Shown: positions 18,323 to 59,183, counted from the first letter of the stretch. The stretch: 64,000 nucleotides of DNA from an uncultured archaeon (GCA_964587725.1 CAZPLO010000001.1:16327-80326); one strand, 5' to 3'. A program made the numbers and translations. Notes: generated by a model from the sequence alone, not told the origin.

Positions 18323-19384
18323 ATGAAGACGGAGCTGTCGAGCGTCGACCTGCGGGTGCTGGTGCGGGAGTTCCAGGAGCTGCTGGTCGGGTCGAGGGTG
18401 GATAAGGTGTTTCAGGTGGGTGAGCGGGAGCTGGTGTTCCGTTTATACGGGGGCGGGAGCAGGGAGCTCGTCTACAACCCGGACTTCATCTGCTTGACAA
18501 GATACAGGCGGACGCCGCCGAAGCAGCCGTCTTCGTTCGCGATGCAGTTGAGGAAACACTTGAGGGGGAAGGAGATAACTGGGGTCAGGCAGCACGGATT
18601 CGACCGCGTCGTGGAACTGTTATTCGATGAATATGTCTTGGTGTTCGAATTGTTCAGCAAAGGCAACGCCATACTATGCGACAACGACATGAATATTCTG
18701 GGGTTGTTGGACTGGCAGAAGTGGCGGGCTAGGACGCTGGGTGTCGGAAAAAAATACGAGTACCCACCAGAGGTGACGGACCCCTACGAAGTCGACAGGG
18801 GAGGGTTCGACCGGATTATGGAGGAATCCGGGAAAGGTGTTGCGGCGACGCTTGCCACGAAGTTCAGCCTCGGCGGAGAATACGCCGAACAGGTGTGTGA
18901 AAAGGCCGGGGTTAAGCCGGACGCGGAGGAGGGCGGGGAAGAGCTGTGGCAGGCATTCAAATCGTTTCTGGAGCGCGTGGGCGGGGAAGTCGACGCACGG
19001 GTGTCGGAGGATGATGTTACTCCGTTCGGCGGAGACGGCGAGAAAAAGGAAACCTTCAACGACGCCGTCGACGACTACTTCAGCAGGAAGGAGATTGCTG
19101 AGAAGAAGGACGTCATTGAATCCAGGGTAGACGACAGGAGGGGGAAGATAGAGGACATACTCCGGAAGCAGGAGGAAGCACTGGAGGACGCGGAGAAACG
19201 CGCTGAAGAAGAGAAGGGCATAGGCGACGCCATATACGCCCGCATGGTTGAAGTGGAGGAGGCCGGAGCTAAAGCCAGGGAGTTGCGTGACCGCGGCTTG
19301 TCGGACGAAGAAATACTCCAGGAACTCCGGAGATACGGGTTCGTGAAGGGCGTCAGCAGACCGGAGCTGGTTCTAGAATTCTAG
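18323..19384 (+). CDS. NFACT-N domain protein (short Rqc2/NEMF/FbpA-like homolog)
   Basis: The N-terminus MKTELSSVDLRVLVREFQELLVGSRVDKVFQVGERELVFRL matches the NFACT-N signature; charged coiled-coil C-terminus. At 353 aa it is shorter than typical archaeal NEMF homologs (about 600 aa or more). Confidence 0.55.
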   Translation: MKTELSSVDLRVLVREFQELLVGSRVDKVFQVGERELVFRLYGGGSRELVYNPDFICLTRYRRTPPKQPSSFAMQLRKHLRGKEITGVRQHGFDRVVELLFDEYVLVFELFSKGNAILCDNDMNILGLLDWQKWRARTLGVGKKYEYPPEVTDPYEVDRGGFDRIMEESGKGVAATLATKFSLGGEYAEQVCEKAGVKPDAEEGGEELWQAFKSFLERVGGEVDARVSEDDVTPFGGDGEKKETFNDAVDDYFSRKEIAEKKDVIESRVDDRRGKIEDILRKQEEALEDAEKRAEEEKGIGDAIYARMVEVEEAGAKARELRDRGLSDEEILQELRRYGFVKGVSRPELVLEF

Positions 19385-19704
19385 AGTGTAGCGCTGGATA
19401 TGCAGTCGTTGAGGCGCCAGTCGTCGTTTTTTATGTTAAGGCAAATCTGGACGTCCCCGACCTTCTTAGCAACCTTATGATAACAGAGGTTGCGGAGGTT
19501 ATGCATGCAAACGTCCGCACACAATGGAGCCTTGGAGCTGTGGACTGCAGCATCCACAATACACTGGTCCCTGGACTCCCCCGCCAGCCTACCGCATACG
19601 ACAAGCTCCGGCTTTGTTGAAACAGGGCATTCCGTCTCAGCCTCCGAAGTGGAGCCGATGCACCCGCAGACGAGCAGAACACACACTAGAGGCAGATACC
19701 TCAT
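19381..19704 (-). CDS. Small secreted Cys-repeat protein (paralog of 4181..4576)
   Basis: Lipobox-like N-terminus (LLVCGCIGS). Two copies of the C(Y)xK(V/I)AxxxxDxxICxxI motif (NLCYHKVAKKVGDVQICLNIKNDD). Confidence 0.5.
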   Translation of the reverse strand: MRYLPLVCVLLVCGCIGSTSEAETECPVSTKPELVVCGRLAGESRDQCIVDAAVHSSKAPLCADVCMHNLRNLCYHKVAKKVGDVQICLNIKNDDWRLNDCISSATL

Positions 19705-19745: not shown

Positions 19746-21923
19746 ATGGATTTGAAGGACCTGCTGAAATCCAGTGTGTGGAAGCTGGGTGCGGTGGTCT
19801 TCGCCGTGTCCTTCGCGGCGAGGGCGGTGCTCGACTTCATGTTCCAGAGCCGCCTGGGATGGCATGCAGTCAACCACGCGGAGTCCTGGCTGTATACCGG
19901 CGTCATGAAAGGCACCCATGTCACAGGCTACATGCTCCAAGACCCGACGGTGTGGCTTCTTCGCGGGGTGGGCGTTTTCTTCCCCGGCAACCTAGCACTG
20001 TATGGCGTGTTCTTAACCTCGGCGGCTTTGTCCGCCCTCACTGCCTCCCTCATACTCCTCCTGGCTTCGGAATTGTACGACAAGAAGACGGGGTTTATCG
20101 CAGGCATGGCATACGGGGGGATGGTGGAGCCCCTGGCTCTGTCGCTGTCGGGGTTCACCCACGACCACCTGCAGCTGCCGGTGATGGTGCTGCTGCTTTG
20201 GATGACAGTGAAGGCTGTTAAGGTCAAGGGCTGGATGCGGTACAGCCTGGTTGTCGCGTACGCGATCATAGTGTATTGGGCGCGGTTCATCAACGAAGTC
20301 GTCTACGTCGCGGTCGGCGCATCCGCAGTGTATGTCGGATACGTTGTGCTTGAAAGATACTATGGGGGGAGGAACGTACACGCCGCCTATATGACATTGG
20401 GTTTGGTGGCGTTGGCGGCCGCCGGTCAGTGGGGCCTCAACACGTACCTCGCATCCAAGCTCGAACTCCTCCCGCAGGGGAGGATGGGGAGCGTCGACGT
20501 GCTGCCCCTGAGCATGCTGACGTTCTGGCTCAGATACAACATGCTGTTGTTCCTCATGCCCTTCGGCGTAGCAGCCGCGTACAAAAGGAGGGACACTGTG
20601 GGGCTGACGCTTACGGCGGTCGGGTTTGTGGTGGCGACGGTGATGGACCGGGGTACGAGGATAAGCGACCTCGGCGTAGCGTTGTTGTTTTCTTACGCGG
20701 TCGTGGACTGGGGTGTGAAGGAGAAGGTCTTGGGGCTGGACAGGAGAAACAGGCTGTACCTGACCGCCGGTTCCGGGGTGCTTGCGTCCGCGTACGTCTA
20801 CTTCAACACCCACCAGCCGCTGCATTACAACATCATATACCTTCTGGGGGGGGCAGTCCTACTCTTCACACTGTGGAGGGTCAATGGCGTGAAGGGCATG
20901 GTTGCCGCCGCTTCCGTTGTTGTTTTGGTGGGTGTAGCGGCCAACGCGGCGTACGTATACAATCTGGAGCCTAGGAGGATAGTGTCGGACACTGAATACC
21001 ATGTCCTTGAATGGCTGCGCGGCAACAACGACGGAGGCATGGTGCTGACGGGGTGGGACCGCGGATACATGGTGGAGGTGGTGTCCGGGTTGGAAGCCGC
21101 TTCCACGCCGGGGAGGATACGGGCTGAAGTACACGACATGCTGTGGCAGCTGGACCGTCAGGCGGCAGCCAACCTCCGTAAAGCCGGCGTACGGTATGTG
21201 ATGCTGACCAGCGAACACTTCAACGTGGTAAAGATGGGGGATGAGATGGCCTACCGGATAAGCGGGGGGTTAGTGTTCGCCCCAGAAAACCAGCCGCCGA
21301 TGGAGTTCACCAACCGCCTCACAGTGTACAAGCTGAGACACGACACCGCACCCCGGTACTTCAGACTGTTGAAAAACGAGACGGACCCCTCCACTGGCGT
21401 GAAGGTGATGCTGTACGAGGTGGCTTCAGAACCGGCGGAGGGTTCGTTGGTCGGGGGCATCGCAGTCAACCACGGCTCTGAAAAAAACGCGTCCCTGGAG
21501 GCTGCAGCCTACGGCAGCAGGGAATACTCTGAGGTCTACGTGGAAACCTTCAAGTCGAACGAGGTGAAGGAGGTGGTGTATCCTGTGGGGAAGTGGATGC
21601 GGGAGTTCAACTGCAGTCTGGCGCCCGTGGACGAGTGGGGATACACCGGAACCATAACGTACCTGAACATGGGGGGAGCCCACACAGTTGACGCTAACGT
21701 TGTTTTAGTGGACGCGGGTTCAGGGGAGACTGTGGACTCCGCTCTCCTCAGGATTAGTTTCAGAGCAGGAGAAAAGAGGACAGTCCAGTACACCTTCAAA
21801 CCCGAGGACCTGTCCAGGGAGTACCTAGTGGGCCACAACGTCATAGAAGGCGTCGACGTGTTGGAGAACGAGTCCACGCCCCCCGTCCTTGAGGGCGTGG
21901 GCGTGCTGGCTATGTTCTGCTAG
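19746..21923 (+). CDS. aglB: AglB/STT3-like oligosaccharyltransferase (GT-C fold) with degenerate WWDYG motif
   Basis: Internal ATG of track ORF 19524..21923, preceded by GGAGG. About 13 predicted TM helices, then a soluble C-terminal domain. The segment TEYHVLEWLRGNNDGGMVLTGWDRGYMVEV matches the STT3/PglB pattern E..L.W(L/V)RENt.....V.sWWDYGY in position and spacing. Confidence 0.55.
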   Translation: MDLKDLLKSSVWKLGAVVFAVSFAARAVLDFMFQSRLGWHAVNHAESWLYTGVMKGTHVTGYMLQDPTVWLLRGVGVFFPGNLALYGVFLTSAALSALTASLILLLASELYDKKTGFIAGMAYGGMVEPLALSLSGFTHDHLQLPVMVLLLWMTVKAVKVKGWMRYSLVVAYAIIVYWARFINEVVYVAVGASAVYVGYVVLERYYGGRNVHAAYMTLGLVALAAAGQWGLNTYLASKLELLPQGRMGSVDVLPLSMLTFWLRYNMLLFLMPFGVAAAYKRRDTVGLTLTAVGFVVATVMDRGTRISDLGVALLFSYAVVDWGVKEKVLGLDRRNRLYLTAGSGVLASAYVYFNTHQPLHYNIIYLLGGAVLLFTLWRVNGVKGMVAAASVVVLVGVAANAAYVYNLEPRRIVSDTEYHVLEWLRGNNDGGMVLTGWDRGYMVEVVSGLEAASTPGRIRAEVHDMLWQLDRQAAANLRKAGVRYVMLTSEHFNVVKMGDEMAYRISGGLVFAPENQPPMEFTNRLTVYKLRHDTAPRYFRLLKNETDPSTGVKVMLYEVASEPAEGSLVGGIAVNHGSEKNASLEAAAYGSREYSEVYVETFKSNEVKEVVYPVGKWMREFNCSLAPVDEWGYTGTITYLNMGGAHTVDANVVLVDAGSGETVDSALLRISFRAGEKRTVQYTFKPEDLSREYLVGHNVIEGVDVLENESTPPVLEGVGVLAMFC

Positions 21924-23668
21924 GTAACCGGCGCCACCCCGCCGACGACGTTGCTGCCGGCCTGCCCCTGCGCGAACAACCAGTCGAACAGCGCCGGCAA
22001 TGCCACGGCCAGTATGGCCACGAACCACACCATCAGCACGAAATCCAGCAATGCCGTGTATTTGCTGCCGCCGTCCACCATCTTTATCGAGTAAGCTGAA
22101 AAGGCCGCGTGTAGCAGCAGCACGATGAACAGGAGGTCCTGCACCAAAGGCACGTTTATTTCACCTATCGACGGGAGCAGGCCCTGAGTGAGGCTGCTAA
22201 CCGACGGCGTCTGAGCTATCGCCGCGAAAGACTGCTTGAACGTGTTGTCTAGTATGCCGACCATCCGGAGTGTGGCGTAGGCTGAACCGGTGACCCCCAG
22301 CAGCGTCCCGTAGTATACGCCTTTGACGCTGGACGCCAGCTGAAGCCGCAGCTCCCTAAGGGACAGCAGCTGTATGAAGTTGTCGCTGATTATCTGGCTC
22401 GCCTCCTCCGGGTCGCCTCCGAGGTTGATGACCTGTATGAATATGCTGCCGAACTTCTCTATCATGTTGCTGCCTGTCTCGCCGGCGAAGTACATCCACG
22501 ACTGGAATTTGTCGCAACGCACCTTCAAACGCATGTAGAGTTTGTTGACCGCGTCGTTGAGGACCCCGAACTCGTGTATCCTGAGCGGCCCTATGGTACT
22601 GTATAAACTGCCGCCGCGGGCCGACAGTGAGCCGCCGAGGGAGCGGACGAACGCGGGGAAAGCCTGATCCTTGCGTATTACGGCGTTCTCCATCTGCTGG
22701 GACATGAACCCTATCACCGCCAGGGGGGAGGCGGAAATGGCCATCAGCACGGGAAACCAGGGGAGGGGTCTGAATATTAGGAGGGGTACGCCCAAGACGA
22801 AGCAGGACGCTATTACGGGTATCAAAACCCGCCTCATTTTCTTATATTCTGGAGGCTTGATGGGGAGGCGGTGGGTTATGGGGTCGTGGGTTATGAAACT
22901 GTCTATGAACACAATCGACAGCAGATCTATGAAGAATAGTGCGAGTGCGCTGAGGCCGACGAGCATGTAGATGTTGTAGCCCATCACCAACGGCAACATA
23001 AAGGCGATGGCCATCATGAAGGATATGGCTATGGTGAGTGATACAAGGGCGTCCTGGACCAGGCTAAGTGTTTGGAGGCTCTGCTTGTACTCGGATGCAA
23101 AGTCCTCCATGACGGCGGACTGCTCCTTCCGGAGGAAGGCGTCGATGCGTTCACCGAAGTCGAAGGCCGCGCTCATCCGGTCCAGGAAGTTGCCGAGAAT
23201 CTTCGACGGCACAAGGGTGCTGAGTTTCCTGCACGTCCTCACCAGCCCCAGGTTCCAGTAGTCCGACAAATACGCGACCTTCTCCATCACCTTCGCAATC
23301 TCCCCGTATTCGACGCGCTGGGATGCTAGGCGGAACAGCTGCCGGCGTTTCACGTGCAGGGTTGAGAGGGCGCCGGCGTAGGTTATGAAGTAGTGTATGT
23401 TCTCGTGTATGTTCACCTTAATACGCTCTATCACGTAGTAGGGGTAGACGAAGATGGCGGAAACCCCGAGTATCATTATTATCATCGGCGCCAGCAGCAA
23501 AACCATGGGGGGCACGCCCAGGTCGAAGGTGCCGCCGTAGAATACCACGAACAGTAGGCCGGAGATGAACAACACCATGGTGACCGCCAGCACCGGTGCC
23601 ACGAATTTCTTGAAGTAGTCGTCTACAGTGTTGTAGCCTGCTAGCCTGATTGCCTCCTCGAAGTCCAT
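21920..23668 (-). CDS. flaJ: Type IV filament platform membrane protein FlaJ/TadC family (two T2SSF-like halves)
   Basis: 582-aa polytopic membrane protein with two repeated cytoplasmic T2SSF-type domains, immediately downstream of the FlaI-like ATPase (adjacent stop and start codons, 1-nt gap). Confidence 0.8.
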   Translation of the reverse strand: MDFEEAIRLAGYNTVDDYFKKFVAPVLAVTMVLFISGLLFVVFYGGTFDLGVPPMVLLLAPMIIMILGVSAIFVYPYYVIERIKVNIHENIHYFITYAGALSTLHVKRRQLFRLASQRVEYGEIAKVMEKVAYLSDYWNLGLVRTCRKLSTLVPSKILGNFLDRMSAAFDFGERIDAFLRKEQSAVMEDFASEYKQSLQTLSLVQDALVSLTIAISFMMAIAFMLPLVMGYNIYMLVGLSALALFFIDLLSIVFIDSFITHDPITHRLPIKPPEYKKMRRVLIPVIASCFVLGVPLLIFRPLPWFPVLMAISASPLAVIGFMSQQMENAVIRKDQAFPAFVRSLGGSLSARGGSLYSTIGPLRIHEFGVLNDAVNKLYMRLKVRCDKFQSWMYFAGETGSNMIEKFGSIFIQVINLGGDPEEASQIISDNFIQLLSLRELRLQLASSVKGVYYGTLLGVTGSAYATLRMVGILDNTFKQSFAAIAQTPSVSSLTQGLLPSIGEINVPLVQDLLFIVLLLHAAFSAYSIKMVDGGSKYTALLDFVLMVWFVAILAVALPALFDWLFAQGQAGSNVVGGVAPVT

Positions 23669-23669
23669 G

Positions 23670-25322
23670 TTACACCGAGAATGGGAGACCCTCCTTGCCC
23701 TTGTAGTAGTAGGACTTTATTATCTCCCACACGTCGAAGTAGTTGAATATGCCCTCAGATATCATCTTGTTTATGATTTTTGCCCTGTACTCGAGTTCAT
23801 TGTATATTTCGCGCACGTCCTTGTAGCCGAGCATCCGGGCTATCTTCTCCTCCAGGATGTAACTGTTGTGGTAGCCGAGGAAGCCGAACTCGTCCGACGT
23901 CGGCACCCACTCGAACACGGCCGCGGTTCCGACCTTGCCGAGTTCGTCGTAGTATTTGATAAGCTCTGTGACGCTCAGGACACGGCGGACGAACTTCCCG
24001 TGAAGGTACACGGCCTGCTGGATTAAGACGACGTTGAGGTTGTCTATCGCAGATATGGGGACGTTGATTGGGTGGCCGGTCATACGCTGTATCATCTTGT
24101 GGGGGTCGCCGGCGTGGAAGGTGCTCATAACCGGGTGGCCGGTCTGCATCGCCTGGAACGCTATGTTGCCCTCTTTCTCACGTATCTCACCCACGATGAT
24201 GTAGTTGGGCCTTGACCGGAGGGCCGCCACCAGCAGCGTCATCATGGTCACGTCCGTTTCCTTCCCGGACTCCCTAGTTACGAGGTGCTGCCACGCCGGA
24301 TGCGGCATCGTTACCTCGGGTGTGTTTTCGACGCTGTAGACCTTAGCGTCCGGTTTGATGAATGCGCTGACAGCGTTCAACGTCGTCGTCTTCCCGGAGG
24401 CTGTTTCGCCGCAGATGAATATGCTCATCCCGTTCTCCAGGCACAGCCACATGTATGCGGCCATGTCCGCGGTCATCGTGCGCCAGTTCACCAATTGGGT
24501 GATGCTGATGGGGACCTTGCTGAACTTCCGGATGGTGAAGCTGCTGCCCTCCAAACTTACTTCGCGACCGTAGATGAAGTTGGCCCGGCTGCCATCCGGC
24601 ATGATGGCGTCCACCACCGGCTGCGCCTCGCTAACCGGCCGCTCCACCCGCTCGCTGCTGTTGAAGACGTACTTGTCCAACTGCAGGTCTGTGTTGAATA
24701 TGATGTTTGTGGCAACCATCTCGAAAATCTTGTGGATGGTATACACTCTCGCGACGCCTATGCAGTGTATGTCCTCTATGTAGGGGTCACGGAGCAGCGG
24801 CTCCAGTATGCCGTAGCCGACCCGTTCGCGGATGAGAAAGTACTTGATTTTCTCGTACTCCTGCTGGGTCATCCTGATTCTTCCGCCACCTCCTAACTGC
24901 GACATAATATTTTCTATGGCGCCTTTCTTCCTGCCGGACTCCAGCCTCTTACCCTCCACCTCCACCAAATCACCCATCAGCTTCACCAGTATGTCGCTGA
25001 GGTCCTCGGTGGTCTCGCTGGTGTCCATGGTGTGAGCTATCTTAATCAGCTGGTCGCTGATTTTGTTGAACATCTCCTGCTCATGCGGCATCAGCTGAGG
25101 CTCCACCGCAATGTACTGGGTCTCGTTCTCCCCGGGGCGGCGGAGGATGTGGATGAATATGGGGTCGCCGACGGGGTACATGATGTTGGGGAACTCCTCC
25201 CCCTTCAGACTCCGGTCCAGCTGCACGTAGAAGTCCGGCTTCTCCACGCTCTTGTTCTGCAGGTACTCCCGCAGGTGCGGGTTCCTCGCCTGCGCCTCCT
25301 GGAACTCCTTCTCGTCCGGCAT
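23670..25322 (-). CDS. flaI: Archaeal type IV filament ATPase FlaI/ArlI-like
   Basis: Walker A FICGETASGKTTTLNAV, Walker B (RPNYIIVGEIREKEG), His box (MSTFHAGD); 550 aa with the FlaI-like N-terminal domain. Confidence 0.9.
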   Translation of the reverse strand: MPDEKEFQEAQARNPHLREYLQNKSVEKPDFYVQLDRSLKGEEFPNIMYPVGDPIFIHILRRPGENETQYIAVEPQLMPHEQEMFNKISDQLIKIAHTMDTSETTEDLSDILVKLMGDLVEVEGKRLESGRKKGAIENIMSQLGGGGRIRMTQQEYEKIKYFLIRERVGYGILEPLLRDPYIEDIHCIGVARVYTIHKIFEMVATNIIFNTDLQLDKYVFNSSERVERPVSEAQPVVDAIMPDGSRANFIYGREVSLEGSSFTIRKFSKVPISITQLVNWRTMTADMAAYMWLCLENGMSIFICGETASGKTTTLNAVSAFIKPDAKVYSVENTPEVTMPHPAWQHLVTRESGKETDVTMMTLLVAALRSRPNYIIVGEIREKEGNIAFQAMQTGHPVMSTFHAGDPHKMIQRMTGHPINVPISAIDNLNVVLIQQAVYLHGKFVRRVLSVTELIKYYDELGKVGTAAVFEWVPTSDEFGFLGYHNSYILEEKIARMLGYKDVREIYNELEYRAKIINKMISEGIFNYFDVWEIIKSYYYKGKEGLPFSV

Positions 25323-25323
25323 C

Positions 25324-26052
25324 CTAAGCCAAACCTCCTATGTCTATGATGAGGCCCTGGCCCGGCTCAACACGGAACGCAATCTGGGGAACAACCTGTA
25401 TCTTGCTGCGCTTGAACCGGTTCACCGCCATGTACTTCTTGGTTTCCCCTCCCAGCTCCTTCATCCCGAACTCCAGGTATATGTCCGACACCGACCGGAA
25501 GAGCGTTAACAGGCTCTTGTTCAATTGGTCGGGGTCGACGGTCATCATCACAATCTTCCCCTTGTTGGTGAGTTTCTTGAAGAACTTAATGACCTCGAAT
25601 GCTTTCTCGTCGCTGATGTTGCCCTGCACCAGCAGAAAGGATATGGTATCTATGATTATCACCGTCTTCTCGAATAGTTTCTTGGCGGACAGCAGCCTTT
25701 CAAGAAAGTCTTTCCGCAGTTTTCCTCCGCCTATGAACGGGAACATGGGTATGAACAGGAGGCGCTCGTCTATCACGTATTCGTCGACCACGTACTGGAG
25801 GGAGTCCATCTGCTCCAGGAACTCCTTCGTCGACAGTTCCGCGCTGATGTAGGTGGCGGTTGCGCCGTTAACCAGCGACGAATACAGGAGACGCTGGACC
25901 AGCAGGCTCTTGCCCATCCCGTCCTTCCCCTCTATAAGCATCAGGGAACCGTAGGGAAGGGCGCCGCCTAACTTGGTGTGCAGCATGTCCCTTTTAATCC
26001 GCATGCTCAGGAACTGGTTGTCGGATTCCTGCTCGTCTGGTTCCTCAGCCAT
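25324..26052 (-). CDS. flaH: FlaH/ArlH-like KaiC/RecA-superfamily ATPase
   Basis: Single RecA-like domain of about 240 aa with Walker A LIEGKDGMGKSLLVQ. Located immediately upstream of flaI, as in archaellum operons. Confidence 0.75.
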   Translation of the reverse strand: MAEEPDEQESDNQFLSMRIKRDMLHTKLGGALPYGSLMLIEGKDGMGKSLLVQRLLYSSLVNGATATYISAELSTKEFLEQMDSLQYVVDEYVIDERLLFIPMFPFIGGGKLRKDFLERLLSAKKLFEKTVIIIDTISFLLVQGNISDEKAFEVIKFFKKLTNKGKIVMMTVDPDQLNKSLLTLFRSVSDIYLEFGMKELGGETKKYMAVNRFKRSKIQVVPQIAFRVEPGQGLIIDIGGLA

Positions 26053-26083
26053 CCTGCGTTACAGTATTTGTAAAGGGTATATA

Positions 26084-26419
26084 TTATTCCGATTCAGCGT
26101 TCTCCTGCGCCTCCTGCTGTCCCTGTTCCCTGACACCCGCCTTCTCCAGCAGGTTTTCCGACATGGCTATGATCCTCTCCAGATTGTCTTCGATGCTGGT
26201 GAGCCGCTCCTGATTCTCGTGAGTGAGTTCAAGGGTTTTTGAGACTGTAACGTCGAGTTCGTCGGTTTTGGACTCCAGCGTGTGTATGCGGTCGTTTATC
26301 TGCTCCTTTGCTTCGTTGAACTCCTTGACCTGTTCGGCAATAATTTCCAGTCTGACGGTGGTGACACTCTTCTTCCGCCTGAATAACCCCCCCAACTTGT
26401 TCAGCAATCCGTCCAACAT
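26084..26419 (-). CDS. Small coiled-coil protein (111 aa) in the FlaHIJ-like operon
   Basis: Heptad-rich sequence (EQVKEFNEAKEQINDRIHTLESKTDELDVTVSKTLELTHENQERLTSIEDNLERI); position where FlaC/D/E/G/F-type accessory genes would occur. Confidence 0.45.
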   Translation of the reverse strand: MLDGLLNKLGGLFRRKKSVTTVRLEIIAEQVKEFNEAKEQINDRIHTLESKTDELDVTVSKTLELTHENQERLTSIEDNLERIIAMSENLLEKAGVREQGQQEAQENAESE

Positions 26420-26467
26420 AGACCCGGGACACCCAAGAGTACTTACGTTTAAGCGTATAAAACGGCT

Positions 26468-27193
26468 TCAGCGGGGGCATACCAGCGAGTACCCGCGTTC
26501 CAGCTGGGTCTCGCATTCCGCCACCTTCATAGGGTTCATGAACGACCTGCACAGGCTCTCGTTGTTGAGGTTGAACGCCACGCACATGATGCATTTGTCG
26601 TGTATCGCCATCAAGTCGATGTCCTCGCCGGGAACACGCTTGCATATCTCTGTGTCGTTGAGTTTCATCCCCACCGACCCGTAGCAGTTGTATGTTGCCT
26701 TCTGCGTGGACAGTTTGTCGCATAAGGTGACGTTGGCTGTGCTCAACGCGAGGGAGAGGAAGCAGCGGTCTCGCTCCGCCGGGTCGGTTTTTTTATCGCA
26801 GAGTTTGACTGTCTGGAAGGTGGTGGTGTAATAGACTGCCACCGCCACCACGAGAATCAACAGCGCCACAACCGCCACCACAAACCATTTGGTGAAGTTT
26901 ATCCGCTCCAGGATGTGTATTTTCCCGCGTTTCTCCTCCACCGTGCGATGGTACCCTGGGACGTGGAGGGTCTCCTTCGCCAGCACCTCCTTCGTCCTCT
27001 CCAGGCCGACGTAGTCGATGAAAACGTTTTTGATTATCCTGTTGAGGACCAGCTTCAGCTGCTCGTCCTTCAGCTCGTCCTCCGAGACGCCGGTTTTCTT
27101 GACCGCCTGGTCTACCTTCTGAACTCCATCGGGACCCTCGTAGAGTACGAACGCCTTCTTCCGGAGGTCCTCTATCTTCGGGTTCATATACAT
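26468..27193 (-). CDS. Bitopic membrane protein: N-terminal cytoplasmic domain, single TM, Cys-rich (about 14 Cys) extracellular domain
   Basis: TM helix WFVVAVVALLILVVAVAVYY; the ectodomain has LCDK...C..L...YNCYG...C repeats. First gene of the minus-strand FlaHIJ-like operon. Confidence 0.5.
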   Translation of the reverse strand: MYMNPKIEDLRKKAFVLYEGPDGVQKVDQAVKKTGVSEDELKDEQLKLVLNRIIKNVFIDYVGLERTKEVLAKETLHVPGYHRTVEEKRGKIHILERINFTKWFVVAVVALLILVVAVAVYYTTTFQTVKLCDKKTDPAERDRCFLSLALSTANVTLCDKLSTQKATYNCYGSVGMKLNDTEICKRVPGEDIDLMAIHDKCIMCVAFNLNNESLCRSFMNPMKVAECETQLERGYSLVCPR

Positions 27194-27238
27194 GAGTATA
27201 TGCGGTGTTTAATAAAATACCCGGCTTATATTCTATCG
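27194..27238. promoter_or_regulatory. Divergent promoter region between the FlaHIJ-like operon (-) and the five-gene pilin operon (+)
   Basis: AT-rich 45-bp spacer with TTTAATAAAAT about 25 nt upstream of the pilin ATG (27239) and a TATA-like CATATACAT / ATATGTATATG element on the other side. Confidence 0.4.
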
Positions 27239-27667
27239 ATGAGTGGTCAGGCCTCGGTGGAATGGATTGTGATAATGTCCGTCGCCATACTGGTGCTCGC
27301 CATCATGCTCTCCCTGAACGAAAACAGCTACCAGACGTTCAAGAGCAACGTCCGCGTGGGGAAGGCGAAGGCGGCGTTGAACGACATCAAAAACGCGGTG
27401 GACTTCGTGTACAGCCAGGGAACGGGCGCCAAGACCAGACTCTATGTCACGGTGCCGGAGGCCAGCAACTTCACCATAACCACGCTGCCCGGTGGCGTGG
27501 GACACATACAGTGCATAGTGTATGTGCGCGGTCAGGAGGAGGTGTTCGACGCGTTCACTGACGCTAACATAACAGGGAGCATACCGTCGACATCTGGAGG
27601 ATACTGCATCGACGTGGAATACGCGGAAGCGGCGGTCAGCATAACCAGGAGCAGCGGCTCGTGTTGA
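27239..27667 (+). CDS. Type IV pilin-like protein, class III signal peptide (DUF361/QxSxEY type)
   Basis: Internal ATG of track ORF 26915..27667. MSG|QASVEWIVIMSVAILVLAI is a prepilin-peptidase-type signal peptide; TTTAATAAAAT TATA box about 25 nt upstream. Confidence 0.75.
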   Translation: MSGQASVEWIVIMSVAILVLAIMLSLNENSYQTFKSNVRVGKAKAALNDIKNAVDFVYSQGTGAKTRLYVTVPEASNFTITTLPGGVGHIQCIVYVRGQEEVFDAFTDANITGSIPSTSGGYCIDVEYAEAAVSITRSSGSC

Positions 27668-28080
27668 GGATGAACGGGGGACAGGTTACGGTGGAATACA
27701 TCATAATCACCGGGATAGTGTCCATTATCTTTCTGGTGGCGTTCAACTTCATATCCGAGGAGCGGAAGACCACGGCAGAGGACATCTGGTCCATGGACGG
27801 CGACAAGACTGCGGAGGCCGTAGCCCACGCCATAAACACCGCATACCTCGCAGGCGACGGCGCGGAAGTCAACGTCACCCTGCCTGAGAAGCTGACAGGT
27901 GGCTTAGACTACACGGTGACGGTGTATCGGCGGCTGGTGACAGTGGAGGTGCCCTCCTACGGCAGGGAGTTCGAGTGGAAGTACGTCACCGGCGGAGTAA
28001 ATGGAACCACGGACGGCCTCACACTCGGCAAAGGCACGGTGACTGTTGAAAACAGGAACGGGACAATCTATTTGACATGA
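27661..28080 (+). CDS. Type IV pilin-like protein, class III signal peptide
   Basis: (MLR)MNGG|QVTVEYIIITGIVSIIFLVAF has the QxxVEY motif followed by a hydrophobic helix; tightly packed with neighbouring genes. Confidence 0.7.
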   Translation: MLRMNGGQVTVEYIIITGIVSIIFLVAFNFISEERKTTAEDIWSMDGDKTAEAVAHAINTAYLAGDGAEVNVTLPEKLTGGLDYTVTVYRRLVTVEVPSYGREFEWKYVTGGVNGTTDGLTLGKGTVTVENRNGTIYLT

Positions 28081-28592
28081 AATCTTCGGACAACAGGGGG
28101 CTGGTGTTGACGTTGGATTTAGTGGCGGCGCTGCTGCTTTTCCTGGTTATAATACTGACGGTTCTGTGGCTGTGGGGGCTTTCAAGAACCAATGTAACGG
28201 ATTACCGGGAGACGGACGCCCGCCAGGAGAGGCTGCTGGCTGTGTCTTCCATGCTGGTCGGCACGGGGGGGCAGCCTCCTGACTGGCACCTCCAGGGATC
28301 GATAGACAGGGATAACGTCGACGCCCTCGGCCTCGCATCCGATCCGCACATACTGGACAGGAACAAACTGGAGGCGTTAGAGGCCGCAGACTACCAGGAC
28401 CTCCGGGAGATACTGGGGCTGGGGGACGAAGAATTCAACGTCAGCGTAATAGAGAACTGGAGCGGCGACGCCAGGGTATTGTACAGCGCCGGCCGGACGG
28501 TGGAGTCTGGTGAGGTCAGGGTTTTCAGGCGCTACGCGCTGCTGAACGATACGAGGGTGGAGTTGAGGTTGGAGGCGTACTACGACAAATGA
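28077..28592 (+). CDS. Pilin-like / pilus accessory protein with N-terminal hydrophobic helix
   Basis: MKSSDNRG|LVLTLDLVAALLLFLVIILTV...; 4-nt overlaps with both neighbouring genes. Confidence 0.5.
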   Translation: MKSSDNRGLVLTLDLVAALLLFLVIILTVLWLWGLSRTNVTDYRETDARQERLLAVSSMLVGTGGQPPDWHLQGSIDRDNVDALGLASDPHILDRNKLEALEAADYQDLREILGLGDEEFNVSVIENWSGDARVLYSAGRTVESGEVRVFRRYALLNDTRVELRLEAYYDK

Positions 28593-28978
28593 AAAAAGGG
28601 TTCATACTCACCATGGACGCGATGGTGGCCCTCATGGTGGGGGCGGTGCTGGTGACCGGCATACTGTATTTCGTAACCCGCCCCAGCCACGACACCGGCG
28701 AACAAATGTATGCGGCGGCCGCTGACTTCCTGGCCGTGGGAGACAAGGAGGGCAGCATCGTCGACGCGTTGAACGGCCGGCCGGGAGACGTCAGCGAGCT
28801 CATGTATTCGATGCCCCATAACCTGTGCCTCAACCTGACGGTGGTGAACGCATCAGGGCAAGTGTTTTACAGCAACAGCAGCGGCTGCAACGAATCATAC
28901 AGTTACGTGATGGCGAAACGCATCATAGTGAACGGCACCGACTATTACACAGCCAGGGCGAGGGTGTGGTCGAGATGA
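28589..28978 (+). CDS. Type IV pilin-like protein, class III signal peptide
   Basis: MKKG|FILTMDAMVALMVGAVLV resembles the bacterial G|FTLxE type; NxS/T sequons in the C-terminal part. Confidence 0.65.
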   Translation: MKKGFILTMDAMVALMVGAVLVTGILYFVTRPSHDTGEQMYAAAADFLAVGDKEGSIVDALNGRPGDVSELMYSMPHNLCLNLTVVNASGQVFYSNSSGCNESYSYVMAKRIIVNGTDYYTARARVWSR

Positions 28979-30234
28979 GAGGCTACCTGTTCACCGCCTT
29001 GACGGTGTTGATGCTGGCGTCCCTGTTCGTATTCTCCTACTACTTCTACACCACAGACTACGCCTCCACCGCCGCAGACATACGAGCCGAAAAAACAGCC
29101 AACGTATTCGACGACGTCGCCTGTGACGTGGAGGAAATACTGGGGTTGGACGCCGCCGTTAGGGCGGGCTCGGACACCGTATACGGGTTCAACGACCGGT
29201 TCCCCGCCGCAGGAATACCGTCGACCATACGGAACTACACAGACTACGTTGAAGGCGCGTACGCCACTGAAACAGCGGCGGAACTCTCGTTGAACGCTGG
29301 AGCACTGTCTTCTGCCACCGCGTCGGTGGACTTCACACTCCATCCGTTCAAGTACGCGTACGGTTACGGGAACCTCAGCAAGAAGACGGTTTGGTTCAGG
29401 AACCTCACCCTGGAGTACGAGCCCCTGGAATTGAACCTGACGCTCGACTTCCGCGGCGAGAACGCTAAAGACATGATATGGACGGAGGCTGAAGACTACT
29501 CCCTCACAGGCGAAACAGTGGTGGACGACTCCGACGCGTCCGAAGACAGCTACGTAAGGGACTTCGCCTCCATGAACACGTTCATAGATGTGCCCTTGAA
29601 CGTTAACTACACGTTATGGGTCAGAACAGTATACGACAATAGCAGCAAAAACTTCACCGTGGAAATAGACGGACGGAATAGCAGCAGATTCGACTTGAGG
29701 GATGAGGGGGCATCTTCCGCGTCGTTCAAATGGTTCAACGACACCGACGAATTCAACCTCACCGCCGGGGTGAAGACGGTGAAGGTGCATTCACTGGGCG
29801 CCGGGACGGAGTCCATAGACGTCATCATGCTGACGACGGACTACCTCGACCTGGCGGACGCGCACAATACCCGGCCCCGAGACCCCTTCACATTCTACAA
29901 CATAAGCGGTGGAGACATGGAGGTGAATGTGAAGGTGTTGTTCGACAACGCCAACCACACCCACACGTCGGATTTGAGCAGGACTGCGGAGTCGCAGTGG
30001 AACATCACATTCAGGGACGGGGACGGGGTGAACGTGCGTCTCGGAGGAGCGGATGGACACTACAGCAGCTTCACCGCGGCATTGAACGACACAGTGAACT
30101 CCAGCAACGGAAACCTGAACTCTTCGGCGGTGTTCTCGGACACGGGCGACGAACGGTACGTGGACAGCGGCTGCACGCTCAACCAGGCCGGCGGACTCGC
30201 TAGAACAGGAAGGCTGTGGCTCGCAGCCGGCTGA
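28975..30234 (+). CDS. Large pilin-like / pilus-tip candidate protein (419 aa), N-glycosylatable
   Basis: Internal ATG of track ORF 28825..30234 (ATGA overlap with the upstream gene). N-terminus MRG|YLFTALTVLMLASLFVFSYYF; more than 15 NxS/T sequons. Confidence 0.55.
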   Translation: MRGYLFTALTVLMLASLFVFSYYFYTTDYASTAADIRAEKTANVFDDVACDVEEILGLDAAVRAGSDTVYGFNDRFPAAGIPSTIRNYTDYVEGAYATETAAELSLNAGALSSATASVDFTLHPFKYAYGYGNLSKKTVWFRNLTLEYEPLELNLTLDFRGENAKDMIWTEAEDYSLTGETVVDDSDASEDSYVRDFASMNTFIDVPLNVNYTLWVRTVYDNSSKNFTVEIDGRNSSRFDLRDEGASSASFKWFNDTDEFNLTAGVKTVKVHSLGAGTESIDVIMLTTDYLDLADAHNTRPRDPFTFYNISGGDMEVNVKVLFDNANHTHTSDLSRTAESQWNITFRDGDGVNVRLGGADGHYSSFTAALNDTVNSSNGNLNSSAVFSDTGDERYVDSGCTLNQAGGLARTGRLWLAAG

Positions 30235-30268
30235 AGTTTTTATTACTGCACAGTAATGGTTTAGTAGG

Positions 30269-32008
30269 ATGGTCGAGATCAGGACTAAAGCGGACGCGCT
30301 GGTCGACGCGGTGAGGAAGTCCGAGGAGGGGGTGGGACTCGACCGCCTCGCAAAGGAAGCCGGCGTCGACGCAGACACAGCGGAACGCTGGGTCAACCAG
30401 ATGGAGGACATGCTGGACATAGACTACAGCATAAACCTGTTCAAGAAACCCACCGTCCGGATGAAAAAAGCCGAAGTCAAACGCACACCCAACATATTCC
30501 TAGACAGCGAAGGTGAGACCATCGAATCCTACGACATAACCGTCGACAAGGTCCCCGCGCAGATAATCATCCAGGACCGGAAAGGCGACTTCATGCGCAC
30601 CTACTACGTTGGAATGCCTGTTTTGGGAGAGGGAACCCACACCCTACTCAACAACGTGGTTAAGGAACTCGCGGTGAAGGTGTCCACCCGCACCGAAGAC
30701 ATATCAGACCCCCGGAAGGCGTCCGAGATAAAAGGCAAGTTCAGGATGGAGGCGCGGCAGAGGATACTTGACGAGATGCCGGTTACGGAGGAGCAGGCCG
30801 ACATACTCTCCGGGCTGATAATGCACAGGGTGTACGGCCTCGACGACCTGGAGATAATCCTGGGAGACGACCTCATAGAGGAACTGTGCATAAACGCCGG
30901 CGACCTCCCCATCATAGTGTATCACAGGAAGTACGGGTGGCTGAAGACCAACGTCGTCGTGCCGGAGGAGAAGGACATATTCGACTACGCCTCCCTCATC
31001 GGCCGTAAGGTGGGTAAGGACATCACCAACTTGAACCCGCTGATGGACGCCCGCCTCATCACCGGCGACCGCGTCGCGGCGTCGCTGTTCCCCATCTCCT
31101 CACAGGGGAATACGATAACCATACGGAAGTTCGCGCGGGAGCCGTGGACGATAGTGGACTTCATGAGCCCGGAATACAACACCATCTCTTCCGAGATAGC
31201 GGCGTTCCTGTGGCTGTGCATACAATACGAGTTGAGCGTCATGGTCGCCGGCGGCACAGCCTCCGGGAAGACGAGCATGCTCAACAGTTTGTGCGCGTTC
31301 ATACCGCCGGGGCAGAGGGTGGTAAGCATAGAGGACACCCGCGAGATACAACTGCCGTCGCACCTGGGATTGAACTGGATACAGCTGACCACGCGGGAGC
31401 CGAACCCCGACGGCCTCGGAGGCGTCACCATGCTGGATTTGATTGTGTCTTCGCTGAGGATGCGACCGGACCGCGTGATAGTGGGCGAGATACGGAACCG
31501 GGACGAGGCGGAGGTATTGTTCGAGGCCATGCACACCGGCCACTCAGTGTATTCGACGATGCACGCGGACACCGCCATGCACGTCCGCCGGCGGGTGACG
31601 GAGCCGCCGATACAGATTCCGGAGGCCGAATTGGAGGCACTGCAGGTGATACTTACACAGTACCGTGACCGCCTGCACGGGATACGCCGCACATTCGAGA
31701 TAGCGGAGGTCATACCTGGGACGAGGGAGCGGCGGCTGGAGCTGAAGTACCTTTACAGGTGGAGGATCAAGACCGACACCTTCGAACAGGTCGACAGAAG
31801 CAACCGCGTATACAACGACCTCAACCTGTACACCGGCATGAGCGTGAAGGAGATAGAGCAGGACCTGCTGGAAAAAAAGCAGGTGCTGGAGTGGCTGCTG
31901 GAGAACAAAGTCAACCGGATGGACGAGATAGGGCAGGTCATGAACATGTACTACACGGACAAGGACGAACTCATAAACGCGGTCCAAGCCAAGAAGAAGA
32001 TAGAATGA
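30269..32008 (+). CDS. TadA/FlaI/VirB11-family secretion ATPase with N-terminal extra domain
   Basis: Walker A MVAGGTASGKTSMLNSL, Walker B (RPDRVIVGEIRNRDE), His box (VYSTMHAD); 579 aa with an N-terminal HTH-like segment (GLDRLAKEAGVDADTAERWVNQ). Confidence 0.85.
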   Translation: MVEIRTKADALVDAVRKSEEGVGLDRLAKEAGVDADTAERWVNQMEDMLDIDYSINLFKKPTVRMKKAEVKRTPNIFLDSEGETIESYDITVDKVPAQIIIQDRKGDFMRTYYVGMPVLGEGTHTLLNNVVKELAVKVSTRTEDISDPRKASEIKGKFRMEARQRILDEMPVTEEQADILSGLIMHRVYGLDDLEIILGDDLIEELCINAGDLPIIVYHRKYGWLKTNVVVPEEKDIFDYASLIGRKVGKDITNLNPLMDARLITGDRVAASLFPISSQGNTITIRKFAREPWTIVDFMSPEYNTISSEIAAFLWLCIQYELSVMVAGGTASGKTSMLNSLCAFIPPGQRVVSIEDTREIQLPSHLGLNWIQLTTREPNPDGLGGVTMLDLIVSSLRMRPDRVIVGEIRNRDEAEVLFEAMHTGHSVYSTMHADTAMHVRRRVTEPPIQIPEAELEALQVILTQYRDRLHGIRRTFEIAEVIPGTRERRLELKYLYRWRIKTDTFEQVDRSNRVYNDLNLYTGMSVKEIEQDLLEKKQVLEWLLENKVNRMDEIGQVMNMYYTDKDELINAVQAKKKIE

Positions 32009-32892
32009 GGGTCTACGCCATGGTGCTGCCTCAGGCGGCGGGCAGGAAACTCGGCAGCAGGTTCGAGTGGCTGGGGAGGATTCTGACGGACTTCACGCCG
32101 CAGCTGAAAAGCGACATCGTGCTGTCGAACATAGACATGACCGCGGAGGAATACATGGTGTCTTCGCTGGCGTCCGCGTCCATACTGGGGGCTATGATGT
32201 TCACCTTCACCTACCTGCCAGTTTATTTACTGGAGATGGTGCCCGGCAGCGAACTCATCGTTTCCATTGCGCCGGCGGTGGTGATAGCGTTGCTGGACTT
32301 CTTCATAATGATGCAATATCCTCGGATACTCGCCGTTAAACGGGCGGAGCTTATAGACCGAGACCTCATATACGCGCTCAAGGAGCTGCTGCTGAACATG
32401 AGCGCCGGCCTGAGCCTGTTCGAAAGCCTCCGCCGGGTGTCGGACGCCAATTACGGGTACGTGTCATCCGACCTCCGGGGGGTGGTGGAGAAGACCACGC
32501 AGGGGACTCCGTTGGACGACGCCCTTGAAGGCCTCGCCCTCCGGACGTCGAGCGAGTACATGAGGAACGCGCTGTGGCAGACGGTGAACGCGGTGAAGGC
32601 TGGCACCAGCGTCAAAGAAGCATTGTCGGGCATAATAGACGCGCTGGTGCGGGAGCAGACGCGGAAGATACGCAATTACATACAGGAATTGAACGTCCTC
32701 ACCATGGTGTATATGCTGTTCGCAGTCGCCGTCCCCACCATAATAACGACTGTACTGGTGGTATTGACTTCGCTGATGGGGACGGGGGTGGACGAGATAA
32801 CCTACGTAACCGTCATAGTGGTGTGCATATTCATACAGGTGGCGTTGGTGGGTTTCATAAGGAGCAGGCGGCCGCTGGTCTACAGCATCTAG
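32005..32892 (+). CDS. Single-domain T2SSF-family platform protein (TadB/TadC-like)
   Basis: Internal ATG of track ORF 31759..32892, overlapping the ATPase stop (ATGA). One cytoplasmic T2SSF-like domain flanked by TM helices. Confidence 0.7.
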   Translation: MRVYAMVLPQAAGRKLGSRFEWLGRILTDFTPQLKSDIVLSNIDMTAEEYMVSSLASASILGAMMFTFTYLPVYLLEMVPGSELIVSIAPAVVIALLDFFIMMQYPRILAVKRAELIDRDLIYALKELLLNMSAGLSLFESLRRVSDANYGYVSSDLRGVVEKTTQGTPLDDALEGLALRTSSEYMRNALWQTVNAVKAGTSVKEALSGIIDALVREQTRKIRNYIQELNVLTMVYMLFAVAVPTIITTVLVVLTSLMGTGVDEITYVTVIVVCIFIQVALVGFIRSRRPLVYSI

Positions 32893-33209
32893 GCCTCCGG
32901 CTTCCCCATCAGGTTGGGGCTGCGGGGTTTCTTGTAGCCTCTGTCGTGGACGCGGTAGGATTCCTCGTTCAAGCCCAGTATGCTCACCAGCTCCGAACGC
33001 GCCACCAGAAACCTGCTGTGCCCGAGGAACGTGGACAGGTAGTCGGTGGTCAGACCGTTCAGCAGGCTCTCTTTTTCGACATCGCTCATGTGCTCGACGT
33101 CCATTATGCCTAGTTTCTTCATCTCGTTAACCAGGACCAATCCCCCGGACTTGCCGGACCACTTGAACATGAACTCCAGCAGCTGTCTGCCCACCTTGGC
33201 CATCTTCAC
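32889..33209 (-). CDS. Small hypothetical protein (106 aa) coupled to the KaiC-like ATPase
   Basis: Its start overlaps the KaiC-like stop by 4 nt; no recognisable family. Confidence 0.4.
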   Translation of the reverse strand: MKMAKVGRQLLEFMFKWSGKSGGLVLVNEMKKLGIMDVEHMSDVEKESLLNGLTTDYLSTFLGHSRFLVARSELVSILGLNEESYRVHDRGYKKPRSPNLMGKPEA

Positions 33210-33913
33210 TTATACAGTACCTTCAATCCCTCCGACGATATGTCGTAGTCTACGAAGTTTTTGACGTGATTTGAGCCGCGCATCTTATGGACCTTCACCT
33301 GCCGCCCCCACTCCTCCCTGATTCGGAACAACGTGACGGAGTCGGCTAGGAAGTCCTCCATGCCGAAACGGCTGGTGTCGTTCGACGAATACGGTATCTC
33401 GGTGGTGAACACGGTGGTGATGCCCATCTTCTTCAGCGACACCATGAAACGGAACAGCTCCGCCCTGAATACTTTCTCGTCCTCGTACGCGATAGCCAGC
33501 GGCACCACGCTGTCCAACCCCAGGCGGACTGCATCGCTGTAGTTCAACTGTATGAACTCCAGCAGGTTCTCGAAGCGGAGCGGACTCTCCGGGCTCTCCA
33601 CCTCGTCGGCGGTGTTCAACGCGTTGACACGTAGCGAGGACAGGTCGAACATGGTGAGCATGTCATCGTCCACGTCCTCCAGGTCGAGGCCGACCGTTTT
33701 GCTGTCCCTTACTATGTGGTCCCTCATCTCCTCCAAGGTAATGTAAACTCCCTTCTGCCCGTACTTCACCGCCCCGTTGTAGAGAAAGTAGAGGGTGAAC
33801 AGGGTCTTCCCGGAGCCGCTGCACCCGCACAGCAGGTTTATGCTGTGGGGTATAAAGCCGCCCCCCAAAAGGTTGTCGTAGCCTTCAATGCCGGTCTTGA
33901 TTCGCTCATCCAT
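33206..33913 (-). CDS. KaiC-like / FlaH-like single-domain RecA-superfamily ATPase
   Basis: GIEGYDNLLGGGFIPHSINLLCGCSGSGKTLFTLYFLYNG (Walker A) with the KaiC/RadA-like layout; 235 aa. Confidence 0.8.
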   Translation of the reverse strand: MDERIKTGIEGYDNLLGGGFIPHSINLLCGCSGSGKTLFTLYFLYNGAVKYGQKGVYITLEEMRDHIVRDSKTVGLDLEDVDDDMLTMFDLSSLRVNALNTADEVESPESPLRFENLLEFIQLNYSDAVRLGLDSVVPLAIAYEDEKVFRAELFRFMVSLKKMGITTVFTTEIPYSSNDTSRFGMEDFLADSVTLFRIREEWGRQVKVHKMRGSNHVKNFVDYDISSEGLKVLYK

Positions 33914-33983
33914 AATAAAACCCCCCTTAGAACGTTAGATATTGAATGTTTTATTAAAATAACCGGGATTTAATACATTACCT

Positions 33984-47834: not shown

Positions 47835-47836
47835 CG

Positions 47837-50086: not shown

Positions 50087-50087
50087 C

Positions 50088-53702: not shown

Positions 53703-53750
53703 TTTAAATGAATTATAAAATAGTTTGAAGATAAGTTCAAATAATTTAAA

Positions 53751-59176: not shown

Positions 59177-59183
59177 GTTTAAG

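Follow-up and report, generated by a model that had tools for sequence, protein, structure and literature searches.

The 64-kb stretch of DNA analysed here (GCA_964587725.1, CAZPLO010000001.1:16327-80326; hereafter the window) comes from an uncultured archaeon. It carries two groups of type IV filament genes that are transcribed away from each other, an archaellum-type (arl) operon on the minus strand and a cassette of five pilin genes on the plus strand (Table 1). An earlier note on this DNA had read both groups as one system, in which a FlaH-containing operon without archaellins accompanies an adhesive-pilus gene set. We propose that the locus is instead a composite of two separable gene sets: the core of an archaellum, whose cluster may be split in the genome, and a pilus that has its own assembly machine. 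This is the explanation we favour, with confidence that is about evenly balanced. Judged by sequence comparison, the pilins most likely belong to an Epd- or ‘clade 2’-like pilus with its own KaiC. The feature described in the earlier note stopped at position 30234 and so omitted a set of ATPase, TadC and KaiC genes that begins 34 bp further on; our analysis continued downstream past 30269.

On the evidence of its proteins, the host of the window is an Altiarchaeota archaeon of the Alti-2 type. Its ArlI is 72-89% identical to proteins of seven metagenome-assembled genomes (MAGs), six of which are labelled Candidatus Altiarchaeota or Altiarchaeales and one of which (locus L008) is labelled uncultured archaeon. 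The next relatives, at 56-62%, come from MAGs labelled mostly Woesearchaeota, Nanobdellota and Nanoarchaeota, with several uncultured Methanosarcinales. The comparisons below draw on 11 orthologous Altiarchaeota loci, in which 10 kb to either side was scanned for ArlB, ArlF and ArlG, and on an outgroup of 21 non-Altiarchaeota loci retrieved through ArlI (Woesearchaeota/Nanobdellota L010-L030, DPANN or other). Three loci recur in the argument: L015, a Nanobdellota genome; L036, a more distant Altiarchaeota genome; and L040, a 5.8-kb contig of an Altiarchaeota-labelled MAG.

The NCBIfam and PDB matches show that the genes described earlier as FlaH- and FlaI-like are true archaellum-type orthologues (ArlH and ArlI), not generic KaiC or pilus paralogues, and the FlaJ-like gene appears to be one as well (ArlJ). 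Every open reading frame (ORF) of the earlier note was recovered in its place when the ORFs were listed and translated, and the genes of the minus strand (21920-27193) are transcribed in the order cys241, arlC-like, arlH, arlI, arlJ. ArlI scored 716 bits on NF058587 against an equivalog cut-off of 550, and its best PDB relative was the Sulfolobus FlaI 4II7 (E 2.7e-125, residues 27-537). Its identity with the ArlI proteins of canonical DPANN loci is 56-62%, as against 28-30% with the second ATPase of the window (ATPase2, below). ArlH scored 225.8 bits on NF052589 and 210.4 bits on NF006320 (cut-off 215 for both). It does not group with generic KaiC proteins: FlaH structures match it far better, the best being M. 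jannaschii FlaH 4WIA at E 2.8e-45, with KaiC at 2.6e-10 or weaker, a difference of 35 orders of magnitude. Walker motifs could be read directly in both ATP-binding proteins (GETASGKTT in ArlI, GKDGMGKS in ArlH). ArlJ matched NF004704 end to end with 428 bits, under the cut-off of 550, and shares 36-43% identity with its counterparts in canonical DPANN archaellum loci. By its synteny ArlJ appears to be an orthologue that is more diverged than expected. A 1-nt spacer, with no overlap, separates arlH from arlI and arlI from arlJ.

Upstream of arlH lies a gene for a 111-aa protein that resembles the DPANN ArlC-fusion family in the FlaC_arch coiled-coil region (hhalign probability 94.7%, E 6e-8). 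A search with that family by hmmsearch gave E 1.7e-6 and selected precisely the orthologous small ORFs in nine of the 11 Altiarchaeota loci; the gene is missing from L041. We call the protein ArlC-like, as similarity between coiled coils is intrinsically weak evidence. An ArlD/E domain was found neither in this protein nor elsewhere in the arl locus. The operon architecture is kept in at least 10 Altiarchaeota contigs.

ArlH, ArlF and ArlG are treated as the divide between the rotating archaellum and an ordinary archaeal pilus. Among the window ORFs scanned, none matched the archaellin family PF01917. Hidden Markov models (HMMs) of ArlB and ArlF were built from DPANN proteins; they gave E values above 0.5 for every stop-to-stop ORF in the window and for all ORFs in the 11 Altiarchaeota loci. 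DPANN queries for ArlF and ArlG, by BLAST and by HMM, also matched nothing in the window or in these loci. The same queries found ArlB, an ArlC fusion and ArlF/G beside ArlHIJ in 21/21 non-Altiarchaeota loci, and L015, when checked with Pfam, showed a textbook archaellum cluster. The lack of FlaB, FlaF and FlaG reported in the earlier note thus extends to the whole window, with no such gene just beyond the operon, and to all 11 Altiarchaeota loci. Because these loci and the window lack arlB, arlF and arlG and all 21 relatives have them, we conclude that their local absence is a real feature of the lineage.

Such an absence could mean that the operon is the remnant of a lost archaellum, either decaying or kept for a filament-free role such as regulation or secretion. 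This would also agree with a 2021 survey of DPANN archaea, according to which Altiarchaeota lack archaella (PMC8407392). However, the genes are all intact, ArlI and ArlH have their Walker motifs and both pass equivalog cut-offs, a pattern of purifying selection and not of decay. The operon is conserved at 72-89% ArlI identity between species-level genomes of Altiarchaeota and is therefore under selection. A remnant is therefore very unlikely.

Most likely, the missing genes lie elsewhere in the genome. When a large protein collection was searched with a profile of the DPANN archaellin N-domain, one Altiarchaeota-named archaellin was among the top 120 matches (P0265, MFC2154632.1). It is encoded on L040 (GCA_042584785.1, JBHOSM010000066.1, 1-5799) together with a 530-aa ArlC/D/E fusion, arlF, arlG, one reverse-strand gene and two further archaellins, three in all. 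The arlG of L040 is not followed by arlH, a break that occurs in none of the 21 DPANN loci, and the gene set of this contig is the exact complement of the window's arl operon. This hints that the archaellum cluster is split at the boundary between arlG and arlH. As L040 carries archaellins, arlF and arlG, an archaellin-free genome should not be assumed.

Across a 45-bp gap from the arl operon, the plus strand carries five consecutive genes that are predicted to have class III signal peptide N-termini; both the gap and the five genes are as the earlier note had described them. The predicted cleavage motifs, [KR]G/ or G/Q (the slash marks the cleavage site), and the hydrophobic helix that follows are conserved in all pilin orthologues. 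The overlaps of 4 nt that the note gave for all these genes exist between pil2 and pil3, pil3 and pil4, and pil4 and pil5 (ATGA), whereas the junction of pil1 and pil2 hinges on the start chosen for pil2. Two A/T-rich TATA-like boxes lie in the gap, at about 25-35 nt from one or the other start codon. Most of the orthologous intergenic regions also have a TTATATT box, and the gap is probably a divergent promoter region.

We consider pil1 a candidate major pilin and pil5 a candidate tip or adhesin subunit; pil3 is a paralogue of pil4. The AlphaFold2 (AF2) model of pil1 looks like a type IV pilin and not like an archaellin. The idea that pil1-pil5 are divergent archaellins or stator proteins was considered and rejected, as profile comparison with the ArlB and ArlF families gave probabilities of at most 5%. 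A profile of the pil1 family found nothing below E 0.17 among PDB sequences, and neither Pfam nor NCBIfam assigns the pilin families to anything beyond weak PF04021 matches. In a metagenome scan, the pil1 profile found five loci and no more, every one of the same Alti-2 architecture. In L005 (1-1193, minus strand) the pil3 orthologue is fused through about 30 threonines to an extra C-terminal domain of more than 200 aa. Thus, minor pilins can carry extra modules.

The pilin cassette runs into a second machine. ATPase2 scored 264 on the FlaI model (cut-off 550) and its best PDB relative was the A. fulgidus GspE 2OAP; by these comparisons it is not an ArlI orthologue. It is followed by two half-size platform proteins, TadC2a and TadC2b, and between these lie the genes for KaiC2, which reached only 31 bits on the ArlH model, and for a 106-aa helical protein with no family match. 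By analogy with Makarova et al. (2016), the latter is possibly a KaiC partner. A gene for a family 4 glycosyltransferase (GT4) follows TadC2b. No Peptidase_A24-type match to a prepilin peptidase (EppA/PibD/FlaK type) was found among the window ORFs scanned, and this gene may lie elsewhere in the genome.

The same cassette order recurs in other genomes. In L015 a QSSVEF pilin is followed by proteins of 175, 139, 277 and 194 aa, an ATPase2-like ATPase (47% identity) and two TadC proteins. By hhalign the QSSVEF pilin corresponds to pil2 over its full length (98.5%, E 1.8e-15), and the proteins of 175 and 139 aa are homologous to pil3 (97.9%) and pil4 (96%), respectively. In L036 the order is pil3-, pil4- and pil5-like genes, MinD, an ATPase2-like gene (50%), TadC, TadC; its pil3 homologue has 176 aa (39% identity), its pil4 homologue 127 aa, and its pil5 homologue is 33% identical over 136 aa. 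In L007 the arl operon directly abuts GT4, with everything from the pilins through TadC2b missing together. Because the cassette order recurs in L015 and L036 and the block is absent as a whole from L007, the pilins most likely belong to the ATPase2 pilus. That FlaH goes with a set of adhesive-pilus genes, as the earlier note put it, is weakened and in this form not supported: the pilins run into their own non-ArlI ATPase, two TadC proteins and a generic KaiC, collinear cassettes precede ATPase2-type ATPases elsewhere, and one locus loses the block entire.

Several observations weigh against our explanation, and most of them would favour the single hybrid system implied by the earlier note. 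In such a system the ArlC-like protein, ArlH, ArlI, ArlJ, cys241 and the five pilins would work together after the loss of archaellins, ArlF and ArlG; a DUF361-type pilin filament would be assembled, and perhaps rotated, with cys241 as a new envelope anchor or stator. First, pil1 and cys241 stand back-to-back in about 10 Alti-2 contigs (window, L003, L005, L006/L037, L008, L009, L031, L032, L033 and L035), though pil5 has diverged to 29-44% identity. Second, adjacency to ATPase2 is lost in several of these contigs: ATPase2 comes after the cassette only in the window and, past two inserted genes, in L003, and large surface proteins follow the cassette in L006/L037, L008 and L035. Third, at matched ArlI divergence the Altiarchaeota ArlJ is 39% identical to DPANN ArlJ, where 46% is expected from comparisons within DPANN, a modest excess divergence. 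Fourth, an orthologue table of seven Altiarchaeales genomes has FlaH and FlaJ and no flagellin (Bird et al., 2016; PMC4975002). Last, L040 is only 5.8 kb long, its binning is provisional, as is the presence of an Altiarchaeota-type arlHIJ operon in its MAG, and a tetranucleotide comparison bearing on the binning is confounded by shared gene content and GC. The local absence of ArlB, ArlF and ArlG would likewise suit a hybrid, and archaeal ATPase/TadC modules are considered to share or exchange pilin sets (PMC4858521).

Nevertheless, we consider a single hybrid system unlikely. The cassette is collinear with those that precede ATPase2-type ATPases in L015 and L036, and in L015 it sits beside a canonical archaellum cluster that is complete and includes archaellins of its own. 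Conversely, two Altiarchaeota loci (L004 and L007) keep the arl operon without the cassette, and L040 suggests that archaellins, ArlF and ArlG do exist in Altiarchaeota. The window also holds a second, paralogous pilin cassette at 46.4-52.2 kb, far from any ATPase, and adjacency is therefore a weak guide to partnership.

It is also conceivable that the pilins form a shared pool on which both ATPase2/TadC2 and ArlI/ArlJ act, for instance one to assemble adhesive pili and the other to serve another mode or condition, with ArlH and KaiC2 switching between them. In the window and in L003 the cassette does lie between the two ATPase/platform modules, and both a pilin locus with two ATPases and the exchange of pilin sets have precedents (PMC4858521). 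Genetic interactions also connect adhesion pilins, ArlI, ArlJ and the KaiC-like CirA in the control of Haloferax motility (PMC10983859). This link, however, is regulatory and involves no shared assembly. We regard a shared pool as improbable. It also counts against a shared pool that we know of no organism in which ArlI and ArlJ polymerise pilins other than archaellins.

The first gene of the arl operon, cys241, encodes a lineage-specific accessory protein that spans the membrane. Its AF2 model (mean predicted local distance difference test score, pLDDT, 80) has a four-helix N-domain, a transmembrane (TM) helix and an all-alpha Cys-rich repeat domain, and predicts that the N-domain is cytoplasmic and the repeat domain extracellular. 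Foldseek found nothing significant for it in the PDB. Only about 10 cluster representatives have the full-length architecture, all of those with a named source being labelled Altiarchaeota. The family searches returned 11 proteins for cys241 and 13 for pil3, too few for phylogenetic profiling. The Cys-rich repeat by itself is widespread (3798 proteins of a representative library, with as many as 14 copies in one protein), and no Pfam model covers it. A 107-aa secreted Cys-rich protein of the window (19381-19704, minus strand) shares this repeat with the extracellular part of cys241 (26468-26830). Two possible relatives of cys241 were considered and rejected. The putative 106-aa partner of KaiC2 was aligned by hhalign with the expected region of the N-domain, but at 2% probability, and is a lead only; the 295-aa partner of a third KaiC showed no similarity.

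The intergenic region between cys241 and pil1 is usually short (45-80 bp across contigs). In L005 the gap (2046-2276) is about 220 bp, where about 45-60 bp is the usual length, and contains an insert rich in inverted repeats. The insert may be a regulatory RNA or a small mobile element.

Based on these results, we propose a model in which the locus contributes to two filaments. In the archaellum, the ATPase is a hexamer of ArlI, which has the KaiC-like ArlH as its partner; ArlJ provides the platform, and ArlC is a scaffold of the coiled-coil type. We suggest that ArlI, ArlH, ArlJ and the ArlC-like coiled coil of the window would form the cytoplasmic and membrane core of such an archaellum, whose filament and stator genes (arlB, arlF and arlG) would lie at a second locus in the genome. 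The cytoplasmic helical domain of cys241 would contact the motor and its disulfide-rich extracellular domain the envelope; from its topology, a link between motor and envelope is plausible.

The second part of our model concerns the pilus. ATPase2 would polymerise the five pilins into an adhesive pilus on the TadC2a/b platform, with pil1 and pil2 as candidate filament subunits and pil3, pil4 and pil5 as candidate minor or tip subunits. The pilus would be N-glycosylated through the neighbouring glycosylation genes, and KaiC2 together with its 106-aa partner would modulate it. The conserved back-to-back promoters may couple the expression of adhesion and motility genes.

Table 1. Genes and regions of the arl operon, the pilin cassette, the second pilus machine and their glycosyltransferase neighbour, in window coordinates (a slash in a signal peptide motif marks the predicted cleavage site).
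Feature	Coordinates	Strand	Basis or remark
Polytopic GT-C-type glycosyltransferase, AglB/STT3-like candidate, 725 aa	19746-21923	+	weak PMT_2
ArlJ/FlaJ, archaellum membrane platform protein, 582 aa, polytopic	21920-23668	-	NF004704, synteny
ArlI/FlaI, archaellum assembly and motor ATPase, T2SSE type, 550 aa	23670-25322	-	NF058587, PDB 4II7
ArlH/FlaH, KaiC-like ATP-binding archaellum protein, 242 aa	25324-26052	-	NF052589, PDB 4WIA
ArlC-like soluble coiled-coil protein, 111 aa	26084-26419	-	hhalign, hmmsearch
cys241, bitopic Cys-rich protein, 241 aa, 10 Cys, TM 103-121	26468-27193	-	AF2, family search
Divergent intergenic region, 45 bp	27194-27238	none	two A/T-rich TATA-like boxes
pil1, DUF361-type pilin, 142 aa, MSG/QASVEW	27239-27667	+	best conserved of the five
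pil2, DUF361-type pilin, 136-139 aa, GG/QVTVEY	27661 or 27670-28080	+	weak PF04021
pil3, minor pilin, 171 aa, RG/LVLTLD	28077-28592	+	homologues in L015, L036
pil4, minor pilin, 129 aa, KKG/FILTMD	28589-28978	+	homologues in L015, L036
pil5, pilin-like, 419 aa, RG/YLFTAL, 16 N-X-S/T sequons	28975-30234	+	weak CBM_35 only
ATPase2, T2SSE pilus-assembly ATPase, 579 aa	30269-32008	+	PF00437 E 2e-31, weak PilB3_C
TadC2a, first half-size platform protein, 295 aa	32005-32892	+	PF00482 E 5.7e-17; orthologues in L015, L036
Helical protein, 106 aa, downstream of KaiC2	32889-33209	-	kept with KaiC2 in L003
KaiC2, generic single-domain KaiC-family ATPase, 235 aa	33206-33913	-	PF06745 167 bits
TadC2b, second half-size platform protein, 326 aa	33984-34964	+	PF00482 E 1.5e-15; orthologues in L015, L036

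At the far end of the arl operon, a gene for a 725-aa polytopic protein converges on arlJ with a 4-nt overlap, and this convergent synteny is conserved. The earlier note had called it an AglB-like oligosaccharyltransferase (OST). One motif is in keeping with this name: all Altiarchaeota orthologues have xWD[RHY]GY directly behind the TM region, where OSTs have WWDYG, although the first Trp is not conserved. The family assignment is less secure, as the only match (PMT_2, E 0.0016) is below the cut-off and PF02516, NCBIfam and PDB sequences gave none. In L037 the gene beside the 956-aa orthologue has weak STT3 and PMT_2 matches, and the orthologue itself has a weak match to PMT_2 only. We find it plausible from the motif and its position that the protein is a divergent AglB-like GT-C enzyme and a putative OST. 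Glycosylation and envelope genes are also dense at 34961-37592 and 52230-56656, among them GT4, GT2, DUF2079, a PMT_2 GT-C enzyme and a membrane protein of the PTPS_related type. This density fits a heavy glycosylation of filament and surface proteins.

The window carries further genes for pilins and surface proteins. The second pilin cassette (46461-52196, plus strand) has no ATPase beside it. Its first two genes encode DUF361 pilins (PF04021 E 9e-6 and 1.5e-3), which match pil1 and pil2 over their full length, and are followed by genes for a 756-aa protein with a pil3-like N-terminus (KKG/QIFTWDM...TGGEPHYW) and a 713-aa protein. At 57452-62300 (plus strand) a 574-aa protein with a class-III-like N-terminus (RAG/QAGLES and a hydrophobic helix) precedes a 1048-aa protein with a Laminin_G_3/concanavalin-like domain, and the two are a possible adhesin pair. 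A 1705-aa sequon-rich surface protein (13160-18277, minus strand) contains right-handed beta-helix/NosD repeats, Big_13 Ig-like domains and a C-terminal TM anchor; large surface proteins lie directly after pil5 in other Altiarchaeota loci.

Further KaiC-family and T2SSE-family ATPases are encoded in the region. A third KaiC-family ATPase (37639-38337, plus strand) is of the generic kind and overlaps by 4 nt the gene for a 295-aa soluble protein that ends at 39221. This protein (38334-39221) was considered as CheF-arch and not accepted, as the Pfam match was weak and sub-threshold (E 0.003) and was not confirmed by NCBIfam. In L007 (571-2237) a GT4, a KaiC-family ATPase and its 320-aa partner lie directly beside the arl operon. 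A third T2SSE-family ATPase (4578-6059, minus strand, 493 aa, PF00437 E 1.3e-35) has no adjacent TadC or pilin gene and lies among housekeeping genes (eIF1A, RIO kinase, DUF371 and a thioredoxin-reductase-like gene).

The arl half of the locus can be compared with the canonical archaellum of Euryarchaeota and of the Woesearchaeota/Nanobdellota loci. It shares with these the H-I-J order and, it appears, an ArlC-type coiled-coil gene upstream, and its closest non-Altiarchaeota ArlI relatives (56-62%) lie in canonical loci. It differs from them in lacking arlB, arlF, arlG and an ArlD/E domain, which all 21 relatives have, in having cys241 as a first gene with no counterpart there, and in the AglB-like gene that converges on arlJ. 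Among the archaellated archaea surveyed in 2016, all had all seven component classes (PMC4858521).

The pilus half (27239-34964) resembles the clade 2 pili of Haloferax (PilB3/PilB4) and the Epd pili of Methanococcus, which have DUF361 pilins (PMC4858521). Common to these loci are an ATPase of the VirB11/GspE family (with a weak PilB3_C match in the window), two tadC-like genes, a KaiC-family ATPase and a dedicated set of several pilins with QxSxE-type class III signal peptides, including a large sequon-rich one. The window set differs in standing back-to-back with an arl operon and in having no recognised prepilin peptidase among the ORFs scanned. Like bacterial Tad/Flp systems, which consist of a CpaF ATPase, TadB and TadC, Flp and the TadE/F/G pseudopilins, it has a platform split into two half-size T2SSF proteins and combines a short major pilin with several minor ones in one operon, and ATPase2 matches CpaF structures (E about 6e-41). 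Unlike them, it belongs to an archaeal lineage, its class III signal peptides are of the archaeal type, and genes for a secretin or for Tad-specific accessory proteins are absent. This relationship is at the superfamily level only.

The flagellar-like type IV pilus locus of Pyrobaculum calidifontis, which has been considered as an intermediate form on the way from pili to archaella, also combines a KaiC/FlaH-family protein with the absence of FlaF and FlaG (Kreutzberger et al., 2023; PMC10334743). However, the KaiC-like gene of that locus is not reported as a FlaH orthologue and its ATPase is a pilus ATPase, whereas the window has bona fide ArlH and ArlI and an apparent ArlJ, with pilins that are modelled as pilin-like and not archaellin-like.

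In sum, the arl half of the locus is new, as a split or reduced archaellum cluster with a new accessory gene, and the pilus half is ordinary and of a known kind: clade 2 pili that have two TadC proteins, a pilin set of their own and a KaiC ATPase nearby have already been described (Makarova, Koonin and Albers, 2016; PMC4858521). We found no published description of this arl operon. The published picture of Altiarchaeota, in which ‘flagellar genes’ of Alti-2 were mentioned without detail (Bird et al., 2016) and archaella were later said to be absent (the 2021 survey), is hereby corrected. If the single hybrid system were true after all, the locus would be a natural cross of an archaellum motor and a type IV pilus filament. 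If the motor core works with other subunits, this would bear on how rotation evolved from type IV pili. If the archaellum cluster is instead split at the boundary between arlG and arlH, it would be a new organisation, and detectors of gene clusters that are based on co-localisation would miss motility in this lineage.

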